Shown one piece after another: positions 9,377-35,359 of a stretch of DNA of 64,000 nt. The notes beneath the pieces were generated by a model, which ran no database searches, had not been told where the DNA came from, and saw only the letters and a program-made list of their open reading frames with translations. The translations under genes were made by a program, and so were the position numbers. This DNA comes from Pristiophorus japonicus (taxonomy: Eukaryota): contig NC_091977.1 of the NCBI RefSeq assembly GCF_044704955.1, positions 9,424,001 to 9,488,000 of the forward strand, written 5' to 3'. Within the stretch, counting starts at the first letter, position 1. Every line of letters starts with the position of its first letter.

Positions 9377-11640
9377 CATAGGCAGTCCCTCGAATCGAGG
9401 ATGACTTGCTTCCACGTCAAAAAGTTCACAGATGTTTCAATGATGGACCTAAAATTCCTGGTCCGAACTAAATCTTGAAGGGTGGAAGGTGCCTGTGCTT
9501 GGATTTTTTTTAATGTGTGGTGACCGTTGCACACCAGCATGGGCTTGTCAGAGCTAGGTCTTGGTCCAGTGGCAAGGATTAACCAAGACGACTGGACATC
9601 AGCTCTGTTACACGGACCTACTGCGCACACATTAACTACCCTCCAATCCATAGGAACTGATCCAGAGTCCATGGAATGTTGTAAAATGATCACCAATCTA
9701 TTGTTTCTAGGGCCACTTCCTTAAGTACTCTGGGATGCAGAGTACTTAAGGAAGTGGCCCTCGGGATTTATCAGGCCCTGGGGATTTATCGGTTTCAGTC
9801 CCTTCAATTGCCCTCACACCATTTCCTGACTAATAAGGATACCCTTCAGTTCCCCCTTCTCGCTAGACCCTCAGACCACTTGTATTTTCGGGAGGTTATT
9901 TGTGTCTTCCTTAGTGAAGACAGAACCAAAGTATTTGTTCAACTGATCTGCCATTTCCTTGTTCCCCATTATGAATTCACCTGATTCTGACTGCAACGGA
10001 CCTACATTAGTCTTCACGAATCTTTTTCTCTTCACATATCTATAGAAGCTTTTGCAGTCAGTTTTTATGTTCCCTGCAAGCTTCCTCTCATACTCTATTT
10101 TCCCCCTCCTAATTAAACCCTTAGTCCTCCTCTGCTGAATTCTAAATTTCTCCCAGTCCTCAGGTTTGCTGCTTTTTCTGGCCAATTTATATGCCTCTTT
10201 CTTGAATTTAACACTTTCCCTAATTTCCCTTGTTAGCCACAGTTGAGCCACCTTCCCTTTTTTATTTTTATGCCACACAGGAATGTACAATTGTTGTAGT
10301 TTTTCATACATGTGATTTTTAAATGTCTGCCATTGCCTATCATTCACCAGTCTATCCTAGCCAATTCACGTCTCATACCGTCGAAATACATTACAATATA
10401 CATTAATGATATAGACGAAGGGATTGAATGTAATATCTCCAAGTTTGCAGATGACACTAAGCTGGGTGGCAGTGCGAGCTGCGAGGAGGATGCTAAGAGG
10501 GTGCAGGGGGACTTGGACAGATTAGGTGAATGGGGAAATGCATGGCAGATGCAGTATAATGTGGATAAATGTGAGGTTATCCACTTTGGTGGCAAAAACA
10601 GGAGGGCAGATTATCTGAATGATGATAGATTAAGAAAAAGGGAGGTGCAATGAAACCTGGGTGTCATGGTACATCAGTCGTTGAAGGTAGGCATGCAGGT
10701 ACAGCAGGCAGTAAAGAAAGCAAATGGCATGCTGGCCTTCATAGCGAGGGGATTTGAGTATAGCAGCAGGCAGGTCTTGCTGCAGTTGTACAGGACCTTG
10801 GTGAGACCACATCTGGAATATTGTGTGCAGTTTTGGTCTCCTAATCTGAGGAAGGACATGCTTGCTATTGAGGGAGTGCAGCGAAGGTTCACCAGACTGA
10901 TTCCCGGGATGGCAGGACTGACATATGAGGAAAGACTAGATCGGCTAGACTTATACTCACTGGAATTTCGAAGAATGAGAGGGGATCTCATAGAAACATA
11001 TAAAATTCTGACGGGACTGGACAGGTTAGATGCAGGAAGAATGTTCCGGATGTTGGGGAAGTCCAGACCCAGTAGACACAGTCTAAGGATAAGGGGTAAG
11101 CCATATCGGACCGAGATGAGGAGAAACTTTTTCACCTCGAGAGTTGTGAATCTGTGGAATTCTCTGCCACAGAAAATTGTTGAGTCCAGTTCGTTGGACA
11201 TATTCAAAAGGAGTTAGATGTGGCCCTTACGGCTAAAGGGATCAGGGGGTATGGAAAGAAGGCTGGGGTGGGTACTGAGGTTAAATGTTCATCCGTGATC
11301 ATATTGAATGGCCTGCTCCTGCACCTATTTTCTATGTTTCTATATTGCAGTGTGGGCTGGCCCGTGCTGCCCCTGGGCCCTTGCCTCTTCTGGGCCCCGA
11401 TCATGTCCCTCTACAATCTCCTTCGCCCTGATCTCGTCGCTTCTTCAGTACCTGCCCACGATCCAATCAGTGACCTGGACCTTGATGATGTCACTTTCCA
11501 CTGCCGTTGCTCTCCTGCTCCAGCACGTGCTGCTCCCTGGAGTGGTACGCCGCCACGCTGCTCCTTCCGTTCCCCGGCCTGCTCCGACAGTGCTCACAGG
11601 CTGGGGGCCGCGCAGACTGCTGGGCTAGGCCACCATGCTT
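9377..11640 (-). mobile_element. RTE-tailed non-coding repeat, split by a CR1 insertion (9377-9631 and probably 11342-11640)
   Basis: Begins 'cataggcagtccctcgaatcgaggatgacttgcttcc' like the RTE 3' ends; part recurs in reverse at 53690-53758; continuity with the GC-rich segment after 11342 is inference. Confidence 0.5.
9632..11341. mobile_element. CR1 insertion with 5' inversion (minus 9632-10388, plus 10391-11341)
   Basis: Minus ORF 9871-10347 (QWQTF..KLAGNIKTDCKSFYRYVK) and plus ORFs 10312-10653 (SKFADDTK) and 10666-11217; tail 'ttttctatgtttcta'. Confidence 0.85.
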
Positions 11641-24586: not shown

Positions 24587-25220
24587 TGTAAGGGTAAAAA
24601 GGAAGCTTCTCTCCCTCGGGATGGATCAACTGATATAGATAATTGACACCTCGCCCTTCGCCCTCTCTATGACTACAGAAGGAAACCTCAGGTTTACCGG
24701 TTTTATTTCGAACAATGCACGGGAAGGTTCAGTTGTGGAACCTCCGAAATACATGAGGTTTTGAATATAATTTATACAGGCTTTGGAGAGGAGCTATTCT
24801 TCTACAAAATCATCGATAGCTCTATTGCTATCAGTGGAGTTACATTGATTTGTCGATTCTTATTAGACTGGCTGTGAATGGTATATGGAACTGTACATCT
24901 CCCATCATTGTGTTGTTCCATTATTTTGCCCTCTACTCCAGTCTGCATGTCGCCTACAGTAACTGTTCCAAAATAATGGCTTCCTTATCTCTTCCTCAGA
25001 GACTTCTAAACAAAATTGTAATTGCTGACTTGGTATGTGTTACTAAGGTTAAGGATATAGTTTTAACGTGTTATAAGTGTGCTATACCTACATAAGCAAG
25101 TGTTACATACAGAGGCAATTTCTCAGACCCCCCTCCCCCCCCACCCAATACTGATTAGTTCACTACCTTCAGCATTGTTCTGACCACCTTTCTGTCTGCT
25201 GCAATAATTTATCCCTTACA
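24587..25220 (-). repeat. 3' LTR (634 bp)
   Basis: Ends TGTAAGGG..CCCTTACA (perfect 8-bp inverted ends); minus-strand TATAAA at about 24771 and AATAAA at about 24703; aligns by eye with 29637-30261. Confidence 0.92.
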
Positions 25221-25230
25221 ATTCCCCCCT
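25221..25230 (-). promoter_or_regulatory. Polypurine tract
   Basis: Minus strand AGGGGGGAAT immediately before the 3' LTR TGTAAGGG. Confidence 0.85.
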
Positions 25231-25371: not shown

Positions 25372-27190
25372 TTATACTAAGTAAGTCCTTTCTGCCAGAC
25401 TGTCTGATTTCCCTTTATTCAATGTTTTAACTATAGTACGGGCTAGGGCCTGCCTCTTACATCGGTCACAACTTTTACAGGATAATACTAGCAAGATAAG
25501 TTCCCTTGCACTACAACCAGTACATTTAGTCCAGCATAGTTCGTGTACAAGTCCTTCCTAGTCAATATTTTCTTAGTGTTCGAATTATGCCCTGCCTGAG
25601 GTATCCTCTGTTTCTTCTATCTTTCCTCCACTTGGGGTCTTCTCTATTCTGCCAAATTTCTGCCCAGCCTGGGGTATCCTCTATGTTGTTGAATGGTGTC
25701 CAGTCGAGTTTGTTTCTCTTTCAGTTCGAGAATTGGTTTTCCTTGCGGCCCGATGGCCTTCGCATAACCTCCTCAGGTAATGTCCATCATTGTCCCATCG
25801 ATTTTTCCTCCTTTTGTTCAGGGGTTATAATAAACCCGTTTATATCTCTCTCGTCAAGTGGAGTAAAGCAGAAGTCAATATCCATAATGGTGCATAAGGT
25901 GTTCCTTGCTTCATTTCAGTTGCCGTGGTGCTCACACATCAATCTCCATTTCCTCGTGCAACAGCGATAATTTTGTAGTCCTGTGTTAGAGGGGTGATAC
26001 TCAAGGTGCACCCATCCACTTGGTCATATCCACAGTTTTTAATCATTCATAATGGATCTCGACATAAAGCAACTTGGTTATTTTTATAACAATCATCTAT
26101 GCTGAGACTCTTAGTACTGTTGTTCTCTTCAGTTATATTTCTGGTTTGTCATGATACCGCACGCGAGTTTCTCCTACATTGTTTGTTTGGTATAGAGAAT
26201 CTCCCTTTGTCACATCATACTATGGTATAGATAATACAAAACCTATTATATTTAAATGTCCGATTACACATCTGGCCTTTGGACCCAAGCATGACTGTTT
26301 CTCCGCACCTCGCAGGGATGAGTCATGTTTTTGTCCATGGTCCAAGTTGGTAAATACATCAAGTGTTATCCAATCTGGCATCATTCTATTCTGAAGCTGC
26401 TCTAGGTTATGTTGTATTCCATTGAGCAACCATGCTCCGTATCCTGTACATACTAATTCTGGCTGTATGGTTTTACTCAAGTTTTGTTCCACTCTATTTA
26501 TCAAATTTATAGTTCTGGCGTGGTCTCGCAGTGTGTGGGCCACTTGTAATAATTCCCTTTCTGTGCCATTACCCAGTTGTGCCTGTACCTTTTCAGTATC
26601 CTCATCCCTTTCCAGCAATCCCTGTAAGGTTTGCGTTAGGGTGTCAACTCGATCATCTATCGTGTTTACCGTCGCAACTCCCGCCGCGTATCCCGCCGCA
26701 TATCCTGCCGTGTACCATTTCTAGTATCCCTCCTTTTCACCTGACCCTCTTTCCACATTAAACTTCATGGTTTTTGATTCAGGGCCTTTAAGTTCCCGCA
26801 GGGTCAGATTTTTATACAGGCTTAGCGTGTTTAAATTTAGGAATACAGTAATTATTCGCTGGCGTACCCCGAAGTATATCGGTCTGCCTTATCAATCCCC
26901 CTTTTGCCCCAGCGTTCATAGTTGGACATGTTTGTGGCGCTGGGGTTGTGGTGGTCGGGGCCCTGGTAGCGCTCACTGTTGTTAAAGGAGTGGGTGGGCC
27001 CGTGTTGGTGGGTCTACCTCGGGAGATAACATCTAGGAATGGTGGTGGAGGGATGAGTGAAATCTGCACCCACTTCCCCCGGGGGCAGTATCTCTGTCCC
27101 TTCTGATTATAAAACACACCGTGGTCTTATTCCCGCTAATTATTGGTCCTGTATTACTGGCCCATCCCCAATGTTGTTTCGTTTCCTTGT
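25372..27190 (-). pseudogene. env: env-like class I fusion glycoprotein, frameshifted
   Basis: Hand translation across frameshifts: Pro/Thr-rich linker (GPPTPLTTVSATRAPTTTTPAP), IYFGVRQRIITVFLNL, basic patch at about 26735, TAGYAAGYAAGVATVNTIDD fusion-peptide-like segment, heptad (RVDTLTQTLQGLLE..), CTGYGAWLLNGIQHNLEQL..PDW, Cys-rich NCGYDQVDGC..GNGD*CVST..CTI..FCFTP, then TM LNVLVVVQG/LILLVLSC and a short tail. Confidence 0.75.
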
Positions 27191-27287
27191 TACGTTGTTT
27201 TATGCCCGTTATTTAAGTCTACTGTTGCTCCGTCCGTCATCATCAGTGTTTTTGATTCTTTATTAAATTCTCTATATTAACGACCTG

Positions 27288-28265
27288 CATAGAAACATAG
27301 AAAATAGGTGCAGGAGTAGGCCATTCGGCCCTTCGAGCCTGCACCACCATTCAATGAGTTCATGGCTGAACATGCAACTTCAGTACCCCATTCCTGCTTT
27401 CTCGCCATACCCCTTGATCCCCCTAGTAGTAAGGACTACATCTAACTCCTTTTTCAATATATTTAGTGAATTGGCCTCAACAACTTTCTGTGGTAGAGAA
27501 TTCCACAGGTTCACCACTCTCTGGGTGAAGAAGTTTCTCCTCATCTCGGTCCTAAATGGCTTACCCCTTATCTTTAGACTGTGACCCGTGGTTCTGGACT
27601 TCCCCAACATTGGGAACATTCTTCCTGCATCTAACCTGTCTAAACCCGTCAGAATTTTAAACGTTTCTATGAGATCCCCTCGCATTCTTCTGAACTCCAG
27701 TGAATACAAGTCCAGTTGATCCAGTCTTTCTTGATAGGTCAGTCTCGCCATCCCGGGAATCAGTCTGGTGAACCTTCGCTGCACTTATTCAATAGCAAGA
27801 ATGTCCTTCCTCAAGTTAGGAGACCAAAACTGTACACAATACACTCCAGGTGTGGCCTCACCAAGGCCCTGTACAACTGTAGTAACACCTCCCTGCCCCT
27901 GTACTCAAATCTCCTTGCTATGAAGACCAACATGCCATTTGCTTTCTTAACGGCCTGCTGTACCTGCATGCCAACCTTCAATGACTGATGTACCATGACA
28001 CCCAGGTCTCGTTGCACCTCCCCTTTTCCTAATCTGTCACCATTCAGATAATAGTCTGTCTCTCTGTTTTCACAACCAAAGTGGATAACCTCACATTTAT
28101 CCACATTATACTTCATCTGCCATGCATTTGCCCACTCACCTAACCTATCCAAGTCACTCTGCAGCCTCATAGCATCCTCCTTGCAGCTCACACTGCCACC
28201 CAACTTAGTGTCATCCGCAAATTTGGAGATACTACATTTAATCCCCTCGTCTAAATCATTAATGT
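27288..28265 (-). mobile_element. 5'-truncated CR1 inserted inside the LTR element
   Basis: Tail 'catagaaacatagaaa'; ORFs 27380-27784 and 27811-28524 (SKFADDTK). Confidence 0.92.
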
Positions 28266-29616
28266 CTTCTGGCTGCCATCCTTCCTTTTTCATTTCTTTT
28301 ATTAAGAAACCCAAATTAATAATGTCCAGTATAAAACAGCTGCCAATGGAAAGGGTTAACTCCTTTAGAGGTTTGTAAGAAGGCCTGATGTCATTACGTA
28401 ACTTCGCGTAATCATTTTTTCTCCCAAGTCTTTGTGCCTTCAAAACTTGCTTAGAAATTAGGAATCCATTAAAACAGCAGAAATCATTAGTAAAGCTGTT
28501 ATTGTTTCTAAACTTCCAATTCAAATACTTGCCAAAATTTTTTTTTTGTTAAATTGATTTAAAACGAGACCACACATTTTTAATAGCTATATACATTCCA
28601 GCATTTTGTTTTTTTAAGGTCCCGTTCACTGAGAAAATCTTGTGTTTTATTTCTCTCGGCACAAAATCTAAATTTCTGTGCCAGTTCCATCTTTTTAAAG
28701 AATTTTCTAATTCCTATTGTGTTTTCCTTCCTTTTCTGAGTTCGCATAGCTTAGATCTTTTTCCCTCGTTATTTTCAAAACCCTCCTGCTTGTTTAGACT
28801 GTTCGGGATTTTTTCTTGATAAGCACTGTCGACTTTGAAAAGGTTTTCAAACTGAAGTGAAACTTTCTTGTAATTTAAAATCACTATCAACATAGAGTGT
28901 CTTTTATCTCTTTTCCAATATTTACACTTTGAAACTGCGGCCATTATGAAAATTCGGCTTTCATTGGTTAATTACCCTCCAATCAAACAAATATCTTTTT
29001 CATAGCCAATATCAACTAGTATTTAGTAATTAACATCTTTTTCCATATAAATCTCCTTTCTTCAAATTAGTTTTGTATTTTACACAGAGGGCTTGTGTCT
29101 CCGTGAATTTGTTAATTTAAAATCATAAGACAATCGCAAACACTTTTTTCCCCAATTTACACTGTTCAATTTGTCTTCCTTTTTAGCAGCTATAGCTTTC
29201 AAGGTTGCGTCTTTATCTTTTGATAAAAACAAGCTGTCCTTTGTGAATTCAATGTTTTTTCCAGCATTTATTTAGTACGTTACGTCTTTTTCTATTTAAC
29301 ACATATACCCGGGACCCTTTTGGTCAATATCTCAGAGACTCCCCGCCCTTGGTCTTCATTTTATCCCACTGGCCAGTTTTCCTAAACATCCTGGGGTCTC
29401 TTTTTAGGTTGAATTCCTTCTTTTTAAGACAATACACCTATCCCCAACCTTGGTTTTCATCTTTCCGTGGTTCGTTATAACTTTGTTCGACAGATTACCC
29501 CCTTACAAATTCTTTATACAGATTACCTCCTTTCCCGTCAATGTTACAGCTGCAGGCGGTACAAAATCATACTCACTGCCATTAAGCTGTCACATCATCC
29601 AGATTGGAGGGTCTGC

Positions 29617-29634
29617 AACCTGCTCGCAGCGCCA
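29617..29634 (-). promoter_or_regulatory. Primer binding site, tRNA-Ser type
   Basis: Minus strand TGGCGCTGCGAGCAGGTT, 2 nt after the 5' LTR; resembles the complement of the vertebrate tRNA-Ser(CGA/UGA) 3' end (recalled as ..CCTGCTCACAGCGCCA). Confidence 0.75.
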
Positions 29635-29636
29635 CA

Positions 29637-30261
29637 TGTAGGGGTAAAAAGGAGGCTTCTCTTCCTCGGAGTGGATTAACTGATGTAGATAATCGACACC
29701 TTGCCCTTCGTACTCTGTATAAAGACCACGGAAGTAAATAAACGAAACCTCAAGTTTACCGGCTTTATTTCGAGCAATGCACGGGAAGGTTCAGTTGTGG
29801 AACCTCCAAAATACATGAGGTTTTGAATATAATTTATACAGGCTTTGGAGAGGAGCTACCCTCCTACAAAATCATCGATAGGTTTATTGCTATCAGCGGA
29901 GCTAAACTGATTTGTCGACTCTTATCTGAGTAGTAGATGCAACTGCCCATCTCCCATCATTGTGTTGTTCCATTATTTTGCCCTCTACTCCGGTCTGCAC
30001 GTCGTCTAAAGTAACTGTTCCAAAATAATGGCTTCCTTATCTCTTCCTCTAGAGACTTCTAATCAAAATTGTAACTGTTGACTTAGCATGTGTTACTAAA
30101 GTTAAGGATACAGTTTTAATGCGTGATAAGTGTGCTATACCTACATAAGCAAGTGCTACATACATAGGCAATTTCTTAAACCCCACCAATACTGATTAGT
30201 TCACTACCTTCAGCATTGTTCTGACCACTTTTCTGACTGCTACAATAATTTATCCCTTACA
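29637..30261 (-). repeat. 5' LTR (625 bp)
   Basis: TGTAGGGG..CCCTTACA, homologous to 24587-25220. Confidence 0.92.
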
Positions 30262-30477
30262 CAATGATGAAACCTCCCACTTGACCCAGTTTCAACCAAC
30301 AACTGTTTGCAGAGCACAAAGGACATTCTAAATTAATGCAACACCAAACAGCTAATGGAAACGTATTCATTTTACAATGACGCTTTAAAATTGCATGCTT
30401 GAATATTTCATTTTAATTTTAAAAAGCTACCGTGGAGTCAGATGTCTGGAAAGGACAGAATTTTTCTTGGAGGGGTT

Positions 30478-34650: not shown

Positions 34651-35359
34651 TAGGTGCAGCATTGAGAATCCGGAAAACTCGGGACCAAGGCCGTTCCGGA
34701 TTCCGGGCTTTTCCAGACTTTCTATTGTCTTTCTGACGTCACACATCAGGAAATACCAGAGTCCAGGTTCGGGTATTTCCAGATATTGGAACGTCAGAAA
34801 GGGGGCGGGGGGGAAAAAGGGTTCCCGCCGAGGAAGAGCTGTTTGGGGCGGGCCCCGCCGTGTGGAGGAGCTGTTTGGGGCGGGCCCCGCCGTGGAGGAG
34901 CTGTTTGGGGCGGGCCCCGCCGTGGAGGAGCTGTTTGGGGCGGGCCCCACCGTGGAGGAGCTGTTTGGGGCGGGCCCCGCCGTGGAGGAGCTGTTTGGGG
35001 CGGGCTCCGCCGTGGAGGAGCTGTTTGGGGCGGGCCCCGCCGTGGAGGAGCTGTTTGGGGCGGGCTCCGCCGTGGAGGAGCTGTTCAGGCCGGCCGGCCG
35101 GCCAGCCCCATCGTGGAAGTGGTGCTCAGGCGAGTCAGCGAGGGGGCCCCGAGGTAAGGGCAGCGGCGGCGAGCGGGGCGAGGCGACCGGCAGTGAGTTT
35201 AGGGTAGCGGGGTGAGGCACAAGGCCGGGCAGCGCGAGGCCCGAGGTCGGATTCCGGGACATTTTATGGAATCCGGACGACCCTGCCACCAATCGGTCCG
35301 GAGTCTCGATTCTGGAACATTCCGGATTCTGAAACACCGGATTTTCGACGCTGCACCTG
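34651..35359. mobile_element. Tc1/mariner-superfamily (Tigger/pogo-like) MITE
   Basis: TA|TAGGTGCAGCATTGAGAATCCGG .. CCGGATTTTCGACGCTGCACCTG|TA. Confidence 0.8.
34830..35086 (+). repeat. 30-bp GC-rich minisatellite, about 8.5 copies
   Basis: Unit 'cgtggaggagctgtttggggcgggccccgc'. Confidence 0.95.

Follow-up and report, generated by a model that had tools for sequence, protein, structure and literature searches.

The stretch of Pristiophorus japonicus DNA analysed here (the window, 64,000 nucleotides) holds a dead provirus without pol. Its family combines a snakehead-retrovirus (SnRV)-like polymerase with an env of predicted F-type fold, and is therefore likely an orthoretrovirus of the SnRV clade with an F-type Env, not a lokiretrovirus (probability about 0.82). 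Taken alone, the locus is an unremarkable dead copy; what makes it of interest is its family. An initial annotation of the window had proposed an F-type fusion protein in a shark-like genome, carried by a relative of the lokiretroviruses. The host was borne out by a protein labelled Pristiophorus japonicus that is 100% identical to the genome over 323 aa, and the fusion protein by predicted structure (Foldseek E 4e-9, VIA Z 10.6). The lokiretrovirus relationship fell, as the reverse transcriptase (RT) and RNase H of the family fit SnRV and are without lokiretrovirus signatures. The annotation had also described lokiretroviruses as unreported from cartilaginous fishes, which agrees with the text of Wang & Han and with their Table S2, where six chondrichthyan assemblies are unstarred (PMC7947760).

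The provirus is bounded by long terminal repeats (LTRs), lies on the minus strand, spans 5.7 kb (window 30261-24587), and has lost its entire pol and the greater part of gag. The 5′ LTR (29637-30261, minus strand, 625 bp, TG...CA ends) and the 3′ LTR (24587-25220, minus strand, 634 bp) are identical at 560 of 616 aligned bases (K2P 0.097). With the rates of PMC7947760 and PMC4422223 this divergence dates to about 22 My (2.2e-9 per site per year) or about 220 My (2.2e-10), a range too wide to use. Other full-length copies found by a genome search with the LTR were 82-86% identical, among 43 matches listed (40 scored of 2432 candidates). A 4-bp target-site duplication is likely: its upstream half, ATTG (30262-30265, minus strand), agrees at three of four bases with TTTG downstream (24586-24583), and clean 4-bp duplications surround the relatives L073/74, L077/78 and L079/80. 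The primer-binding site (29617-29634, minus strand) is that of a tRNA-Ser, its first 16 nt being complementary to the tRNA 3′ end including CCA; ARAGORN called this tRNA as Ser(TGA) in 2 of the 6 genomic loci scanned.

Behind the primer-binding site, a leader of 1.3 kb with the first gag codons (28266-29616, minus strand) is 73-85% identical in blocks to L073, a copy that bears pol; within it, MKKEGWQPED (28293-28264, minus strand) aligns with the gag start of L049. It is followed by an inserted LINE 3′ fragment of about 1 kb (27288-28265, minus strand), which we take to be CR1-like and of which L044, L049 and L070 contain dispersed copies at 95-96% identity. At this insert gag and pol have lost about 4.9 kb, so that the window joins L073 position 4718 to position 9626, and no match to the family's pol was found anywhere inside the window provirus. 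The 5′ part of env (26944-27270, minus strand) encodes an N-terminal Cys-containing domain and a Thr-rich linker, with motifs at 27087-27055 and 26955-26923 (minus strand); it is 86% identical to L073 9626-9949, which sits just behind the end of pol. A polypurine tract (AGGGGGGAA, 25222-25230, minus strand) lies directly 5′ of the 3′ LTR. The window provirus is dead and cannot replicate. Elsewhere the window contains a 30-bp tandem array (34802-35123), three N stretches in an AG-rich repeat (42046-42774), a gypsy-like RT fragment (44661-45251; 27% identical to P0003), and several scattered LINE 3′ fragments. At L071/L072, a provirus of family C is nested within one of family A, the family of the window copy.

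The broken env core (25372-26943, minus strand) is 57% identical to P0002, a natural copy with an unbroken env frame of 663 codons, over 265 columns (E 8e-81). It is laid out as an F2-like strand, a degenerate cleavage site, a fusion peptide, a long heptad, Cys-rich beta domains, a replaced stalk, a partial transmembrane segment (TM), and a tail. The motifs first named in the annotation were all present on the minus strand: IYFGVRQRIITVFLNL (26879-26832), TAGYAAGYAAGVATVNTIDD (26711-26652), MMPDW (26384-26370), and a Cys-rich block with GNGD*CVST (25953-25927) and FCFTP (25873-25859), ahead of a stop at 25374-25372. They are not due to chance, because the window env has at least 150 matches at E 1e-49 or better in this 5.9-Gb genome. 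The range first given for env, 25372-26900, was right at its stop end; the start lies further upstream, near 27270. The estimate of an ectodomain of about 400 codons was sound, since P0002 has about 400 residues between its RKR site and the TM. Also as first reported, no CX6CC or immunosuppressive motif occurs in any minus frame of 25372-27290; CX6CC and LQNR..LD are likewise absent from the unbroken relatives P0002, P0177 and P0196. Neither the window env nor these three relatives have the traits of a gamma-type Env (immunosuppressive motif, CX6CC, short TM ectodomain).

Aligned with the natural copy L016 over 1192 bases (86% identical), the window env has 4 stops in frame and 8 indels that shift the frame; some of these indels may be L016's own. 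The basic cleavage patch placed near 26735 was indeed there, in another frame than the peptide read with it; 14 of the 30 nearest copies share this offset, 8 have an in-frame basic site, and 8 are unreadable or otherwise arranged. The region of the fusion peptide contains a doubled GYAAG, a tandem duplication. As for the TM and short tail, only a split second half of the TM remains; a subfamily-specific segment of about 180 nt (25525-25700, minus strand) takes the place of the stalk helix and of the TM's first half. This segment is common to 20 of the 30 nearest copies and absent from L016, L020 and L046. Since dispersed copies share these lesions, the subfamily probably multiplied after its env was damaged. 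A segmentally repeated copy (L031-L034 and L037-L040; contigs C3847, C3836, C3281 and C1209) has tandem arrays of 1-2.5 kb that grew from the short repeat in the fusion-peptide coding region. Gene fusions were considered for open frames of 500-1018 aa and rejected, as these frames are tandem expansions of the fusion-peptide repeat.

The fold was modelled on the unbroken relative P0002 and not on the window copy, to which it extends through a match of the window env to the folded family alignment (hhalign probability 100). An AlphaFold2 monomer model of P0002 residues 144-622, built on an alignment of 62 diverse natural sequences, reached pLDDT 68.4 and pTM 0.53, with low confidence at residues 66-147; an earlier fold from 18 close copies (pLDDT 30) was not used. 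In the comparison with RSV and paramyxovirus F that had been proposed at the outset, all 40 Foldseek matches listed against the PDB were paramyxovirus or pneumovirus F proteins (best E 4e-9, probability 1.0), at low TM-scores (0.26-0.44; up to 0.46 overall) and 8-14% sequence identity. The matches cover model residues 8-476, and the predicted structure contains the F domain I-III core drawn from both subunits. VIA ranked F of NDV (Z 10.6, 333 aligned, rmsd 24.5), measles virus (Z 9.3, 266 aligned, rmsd 8.7), Ghana virus (Z 9.1) and PIV5 (Z 9.0), together with foamy Env (Z 9.0, 260 aligned, rmsd 4.8), above helical bundles (Z 8.7 and below). Among 50 matches listed in BFVD, insect lispivirus glycoproteins were best (E 1e-12), with a fish filovirus protein also among the best; baculovirus F (E 6e-10), the Envs of the walleye epsilonretroviruses WEHV-1 (E 2e-9) and WDSV (E 7e-8), and feline foamy Env (E 2e-4) were matched as well. 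Neither SnRV nor lokiretrovirus Env stood among the fold-search matches listed, which speaks neither for nor against a likeness. In the ESM Atlas, P0002 scored 0.94 to Fusion_gly clusters, and the full-length relative P0177 scored 0.82 with no family. Methods based on sequence barely detect the likeness: searches for Pfam domains, PDB structures and homologues that used the P0002 env as a single sequence were blank, Fusion_gly (PF00523) matched 1 of 62 family members (E 0.009), and a PDB profile search with the family env gave E 0.039. The family Env is thus predicted to be F-type. Foamy Env and baculovirus F, to which best hits had been named in advance as evidence against the initial reading, score about as well as paramyxovirus F; this means that the fold is shared and not that it is wrong. 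Because foamy and walleye epsilonretrovirus Envs match too, the predicted fold is shared far beyond lokiretroviruses and is not specific to them.

The window copy has no pol, and assignment of its backbone rests on relatives (L073/74, L069/70, L041/42 and L043/44) that join the window's LTR or env to a pol 60-75% identical to P0003 in its main blocks. In an RT tree of 30 rows, from which 17 of the 23 family loci were omitted for want of a usable RT stretch, as were the majority of bird and plant rows, families A, B and C formed one clade (100/98), with family D and pols of Mustelus, Heterodontus, minnow and herring joining it at 100/97; a gamma/epsilon-like clade (100/99) and a gypsy clade (100/100) were separate from families A-D. 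The tree includes no SnRV or lokiretrovirus, and its gamma/epsilon-like rows are unlabelled proxies. Placement relative to SnRV comes from a hand count on the alignment printed in the Wang & Han supplement (PMC7947760), where P0003 RT is identical to SnRV at 118 of 255 positions (~46%) as against 84 of 255 (~33%) for Loki-Lca. The RT motif of the family, PQGFHNSPGIFH, fits that of SnRV (PQGFHASPGIFH), unlike those of lokiretroviruses (CPFG.[SA]NSPA) and HERV-L (PQGYINSPAL), and the lokiretrovirus signatures CPFG and VPLSRWP are absent from the family RT. By eye, the RNase H resembles that of SnRV (group III), sharing TGWA...G.LEG..SAQV with it and not the lokiretrovirus form; it is not of the lokiretrovirus and foamy group. 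Judged by identity and motifs against the printed SnRV, lokiretrovirus, gamma, epsilon, foamy and HERV-L rows, the RT goes with SnRV and falls outside the lokiretrovirus clade. The best solved structures for RT-RNase H were MLV/XMRV (E 1e-81 and 6e-120), with foamy at 1e-30 and 1e-59; by BLAST, P0003 RT was 37% identical to a gamma-like RT and 33% identical to an epsilon-like one. An in-frame TAG or TGA separates gag from pol. A pol search of viral contigs found no relative. An errantivirus of the Ty3/gypsy type with an F-type env was considered and rejected, the RT lying outside the gypsy clade and the RNase H being dual. The RT and RNase H of the family are likely SnRV-like, the clade placement drawing on the hand count and motifs.

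A true lokiretrovirus in a shark is very improbable. Its case is made by the Env, which has the traits described for lokiretroviruses (F-type, R-x-K-R site, fusion peptide, coiled coil, TM) and a Cys and beta pattern that lines up with theirs by eye, and by a dual RNase H (tether plus RH; RT_RNaseH_2 and RNase_H in L049 and L223), which lokiretroviruses share and which is a trait of all retroviruses. Against it stand the missing lokiretrovirus signatures in RT and RNase H, and a degenerate search of the genome for the lokiretrovirus motif VPLSRWPM returned a single chance-like match, in a stop-riddled frame without RT. The family Env, moreover, carries an extra N-terminal domain that lokiretrovirus Env does not have, and the 20 env homologues that are named (of 33) include no teleost or lamprey protein.

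Another possibility is a recombinant in which an SnRV-clade backbone acquired its env from a lokiretrovirus specifically. Swapping of env is common (PMC3758190), and an SnRV-like endogenous retrovirus (ERV) of the elephant shark reads by eye as having a gamma-type TM (LQNRMALD, CX6CC), so env has evidently changed within the SnRV-like clade. This source is nonetheless unlikely: no Env of a named lokiretrovirus host was among the profile matches at E<=0.001, the best structural matches include insect lispivirus, baculovirus and walleye proteins, and an F-type env also accompanies another RT lineage, only distantly related (families E and S2; L238-L241 and L245), in which the RT upstream of env is 37-42% identical to P0003 and family C. 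The walleye matches in turn speak for an epsilonretrovirus-like ERV, as do the read-through gag-pol and an MLV-type RNase H; this reading is hardly plausible, given that the family RT forms its own clade outside the gamma/epsilon-like one and is only 33-34% identical to epsilon-like RTs. An SnRV-clade orthoretrovirus with an F-type Env remains the preferred reading.

Relatives of this env are found mainly in cartilaginous fishes. A profile search of 1.84 billion proteins returned 33 homologues (E<=0.001), of which 20 are named: 18 from sharks or skate (Pristiophorus, Mustelus, Heterodontus, Heptranchias, Chiloscyllium, Scyliorhinus, Rhinoraja) and 2 from frogs (Pelodytes, Xenopus tropicalis). 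A homologue search with profile A2 returned only two sawshark proteins. Unbroken relatives share one order: a signal-like N-terminus, a variable N-terminal domain, the F2-like segment, R-x-K-R, the fusion peptide, the heptad, Cys-rich beta domains, a stalk, and the TM. The variable domain is Ig-like in P0177, P0182, P0188 and P0196, ahead of the F core (a V-set in P0188; the source label for P0177), and in families B and D its place is taken by other Cys-rich domains. These N-terminal domains are likely modular and are candidates for receptor binding. Family D has at least 150 near-identical env matches; all 150 listed are free of stops in the query stretch, and 15 have frames of at least 700 aa. 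In one member, L223/224, gag, pol and env are all open between 675-bp LTRs that are 100% identical, and the target duplication is 5 bp long; L227/228 is a derivative without gag and pol (LTRs 99.85% identical). Such copies suggest that family D is very young and entered the germ line recently.

A solitary open F-type env of 786 codons was located at L193:1465-3822 (minus strand); it is 42% identical to bamboo-shark P0177, and no retroviral pol was found within 50 kb. Its private changes comprise 21 synonymous, 17 non-synonymous and no stops, compared with 88 synonymous, 257 non-synonymous and 26 stops in six broken paralogues (Fisher p 8e-5), an apparent signal of purifying selection. The pattern fits a candidate domesticated env and also a lineage that replicated for longer. 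Coverage of L193 was 14 of 30 bins in run X6 and none in X5 and X7. For the window env, no RNA data set was listed as containing it.

The relation to known systems differs between polymerase and envelope. ERVs of the SnRV clade (clade Huo), including CmiERV lineage I of the elephant shark, are already known from cartilaginous fish (PMC4422223, PMC6001957, PMC12193657), and the likeness of the family to SnRV rests on its RT and RNase H (similar motifs, and the RT identity counted by hand) and not on an Env fold. By eye, the Ser primer site in the published sequence of CmiERV I (PMC4422223) agrees with that of family D; the CmiERV I TM, in our own reading of its DNA, is gamma-type as opposed to the F-type Env of the family. 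The Env tail of SnRV is given as 136 residues (PMC12193657), against a short tail in the family. Lokiretroviruses, as described in PMC7947760 and PMC9040795, are alike in their LTR-gag-pol-env order, dual RNase H, and F-type Env with a basic cleavage site; they differ in RT and RNase H signatures, in Env without the added N-terminal domain, in an smc gene of which there is none in the family copies read, and in a host class from which they are unreported. Paramyxovirus and pneumovirus F and foamy Env ('class Ib', PMC11468914) share with the family a predicted common core over both subunits (VIA Z 9-10.6), at 8-14% identity; the family has an N-terminal add-on domain where foamy Env has an inserted receptor domain. 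Epsilonretrovirus Envs, whose predicted structures match the family model, are about twice as long and belong with a different RT clade.

In published work, an F-like Env counts as characteristic of lokiretroviruses and foamy viruses (PMC9040795, PMC11468914), foamy Env is set against orthoretroviral Env (PMC11468914), and for epsilon Env a distinct structure is predicted (PMC3758190). Our search of the literature, which mostly covered sources other than subscription journals, found neither a published report of an F-type Env in SnRV-like ERVs nor a published statement of an F-type match for epsilonretrovirus Env; epsilon or SnRV Env may already appear with the F-like proteins listed in bioRxiv supplements and in the source data of PMC12583693. 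Further work on the topic includes bioRxiv 2023.10.26.564294, 2024.03.17.585361 and 2023.10.17.562709, and PMC10435555, PMC11521997 and PMC13709493.

We propose that an intact member of the family would have worked as follows. Reverse transcription would be primed by tRNA-Ser, Gag-Pol made by read-through of the stop, and Env translated from a spliced RNA. Cleavage of Env at R-x-K-R would then yield two subunits: an N-terminal one, comprising the variable domain (likely receptor-binding) and the F2-like part, and an F1-like one. In the latter, the fusion peptide and long heptad would fold back together with the stalk helix to form a six-helix bundle, as in F; we infer such F-like refolding from the model. 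The subfamily of the window likely spread after losing its stalk and TM, by intracellular copying or with help from other copies. The window copy would have lost gag-pol later, after which replication would have been impossible.

Fish retroviruses likely carry the F-type fusion machine more widely than has been reported. Because Pfam finds nothing in such envs, screens for ERVs that use standard env domains likely miss the class. An F-type Env on an SnRV-like backbone, together with the walleye matches, weakens the case for an independent gain of env by lokiretroviruses relative to canonical retroviruses, and opens the question of the ancestral retroviral envelope to testing on many natural open frames. 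A broader joint reading is tentative, and we consider it possible more than probable: F-type Env would be a major overlooked class of aquatic orthoretroviruses, carried in sharks by two or more RT lineages and fitted with N-terminal receptor domains that can be swapped (some of them Ig-like), with one retrovirus still entering the sawshark germ line and one env domesticated as a host gene. Under the same joint reading, the fold common to foamy, lokiretrovirus and walleye Envs would make the F-type envelope ancestral among retroviruses, with the gamma and beta types as later replacements.
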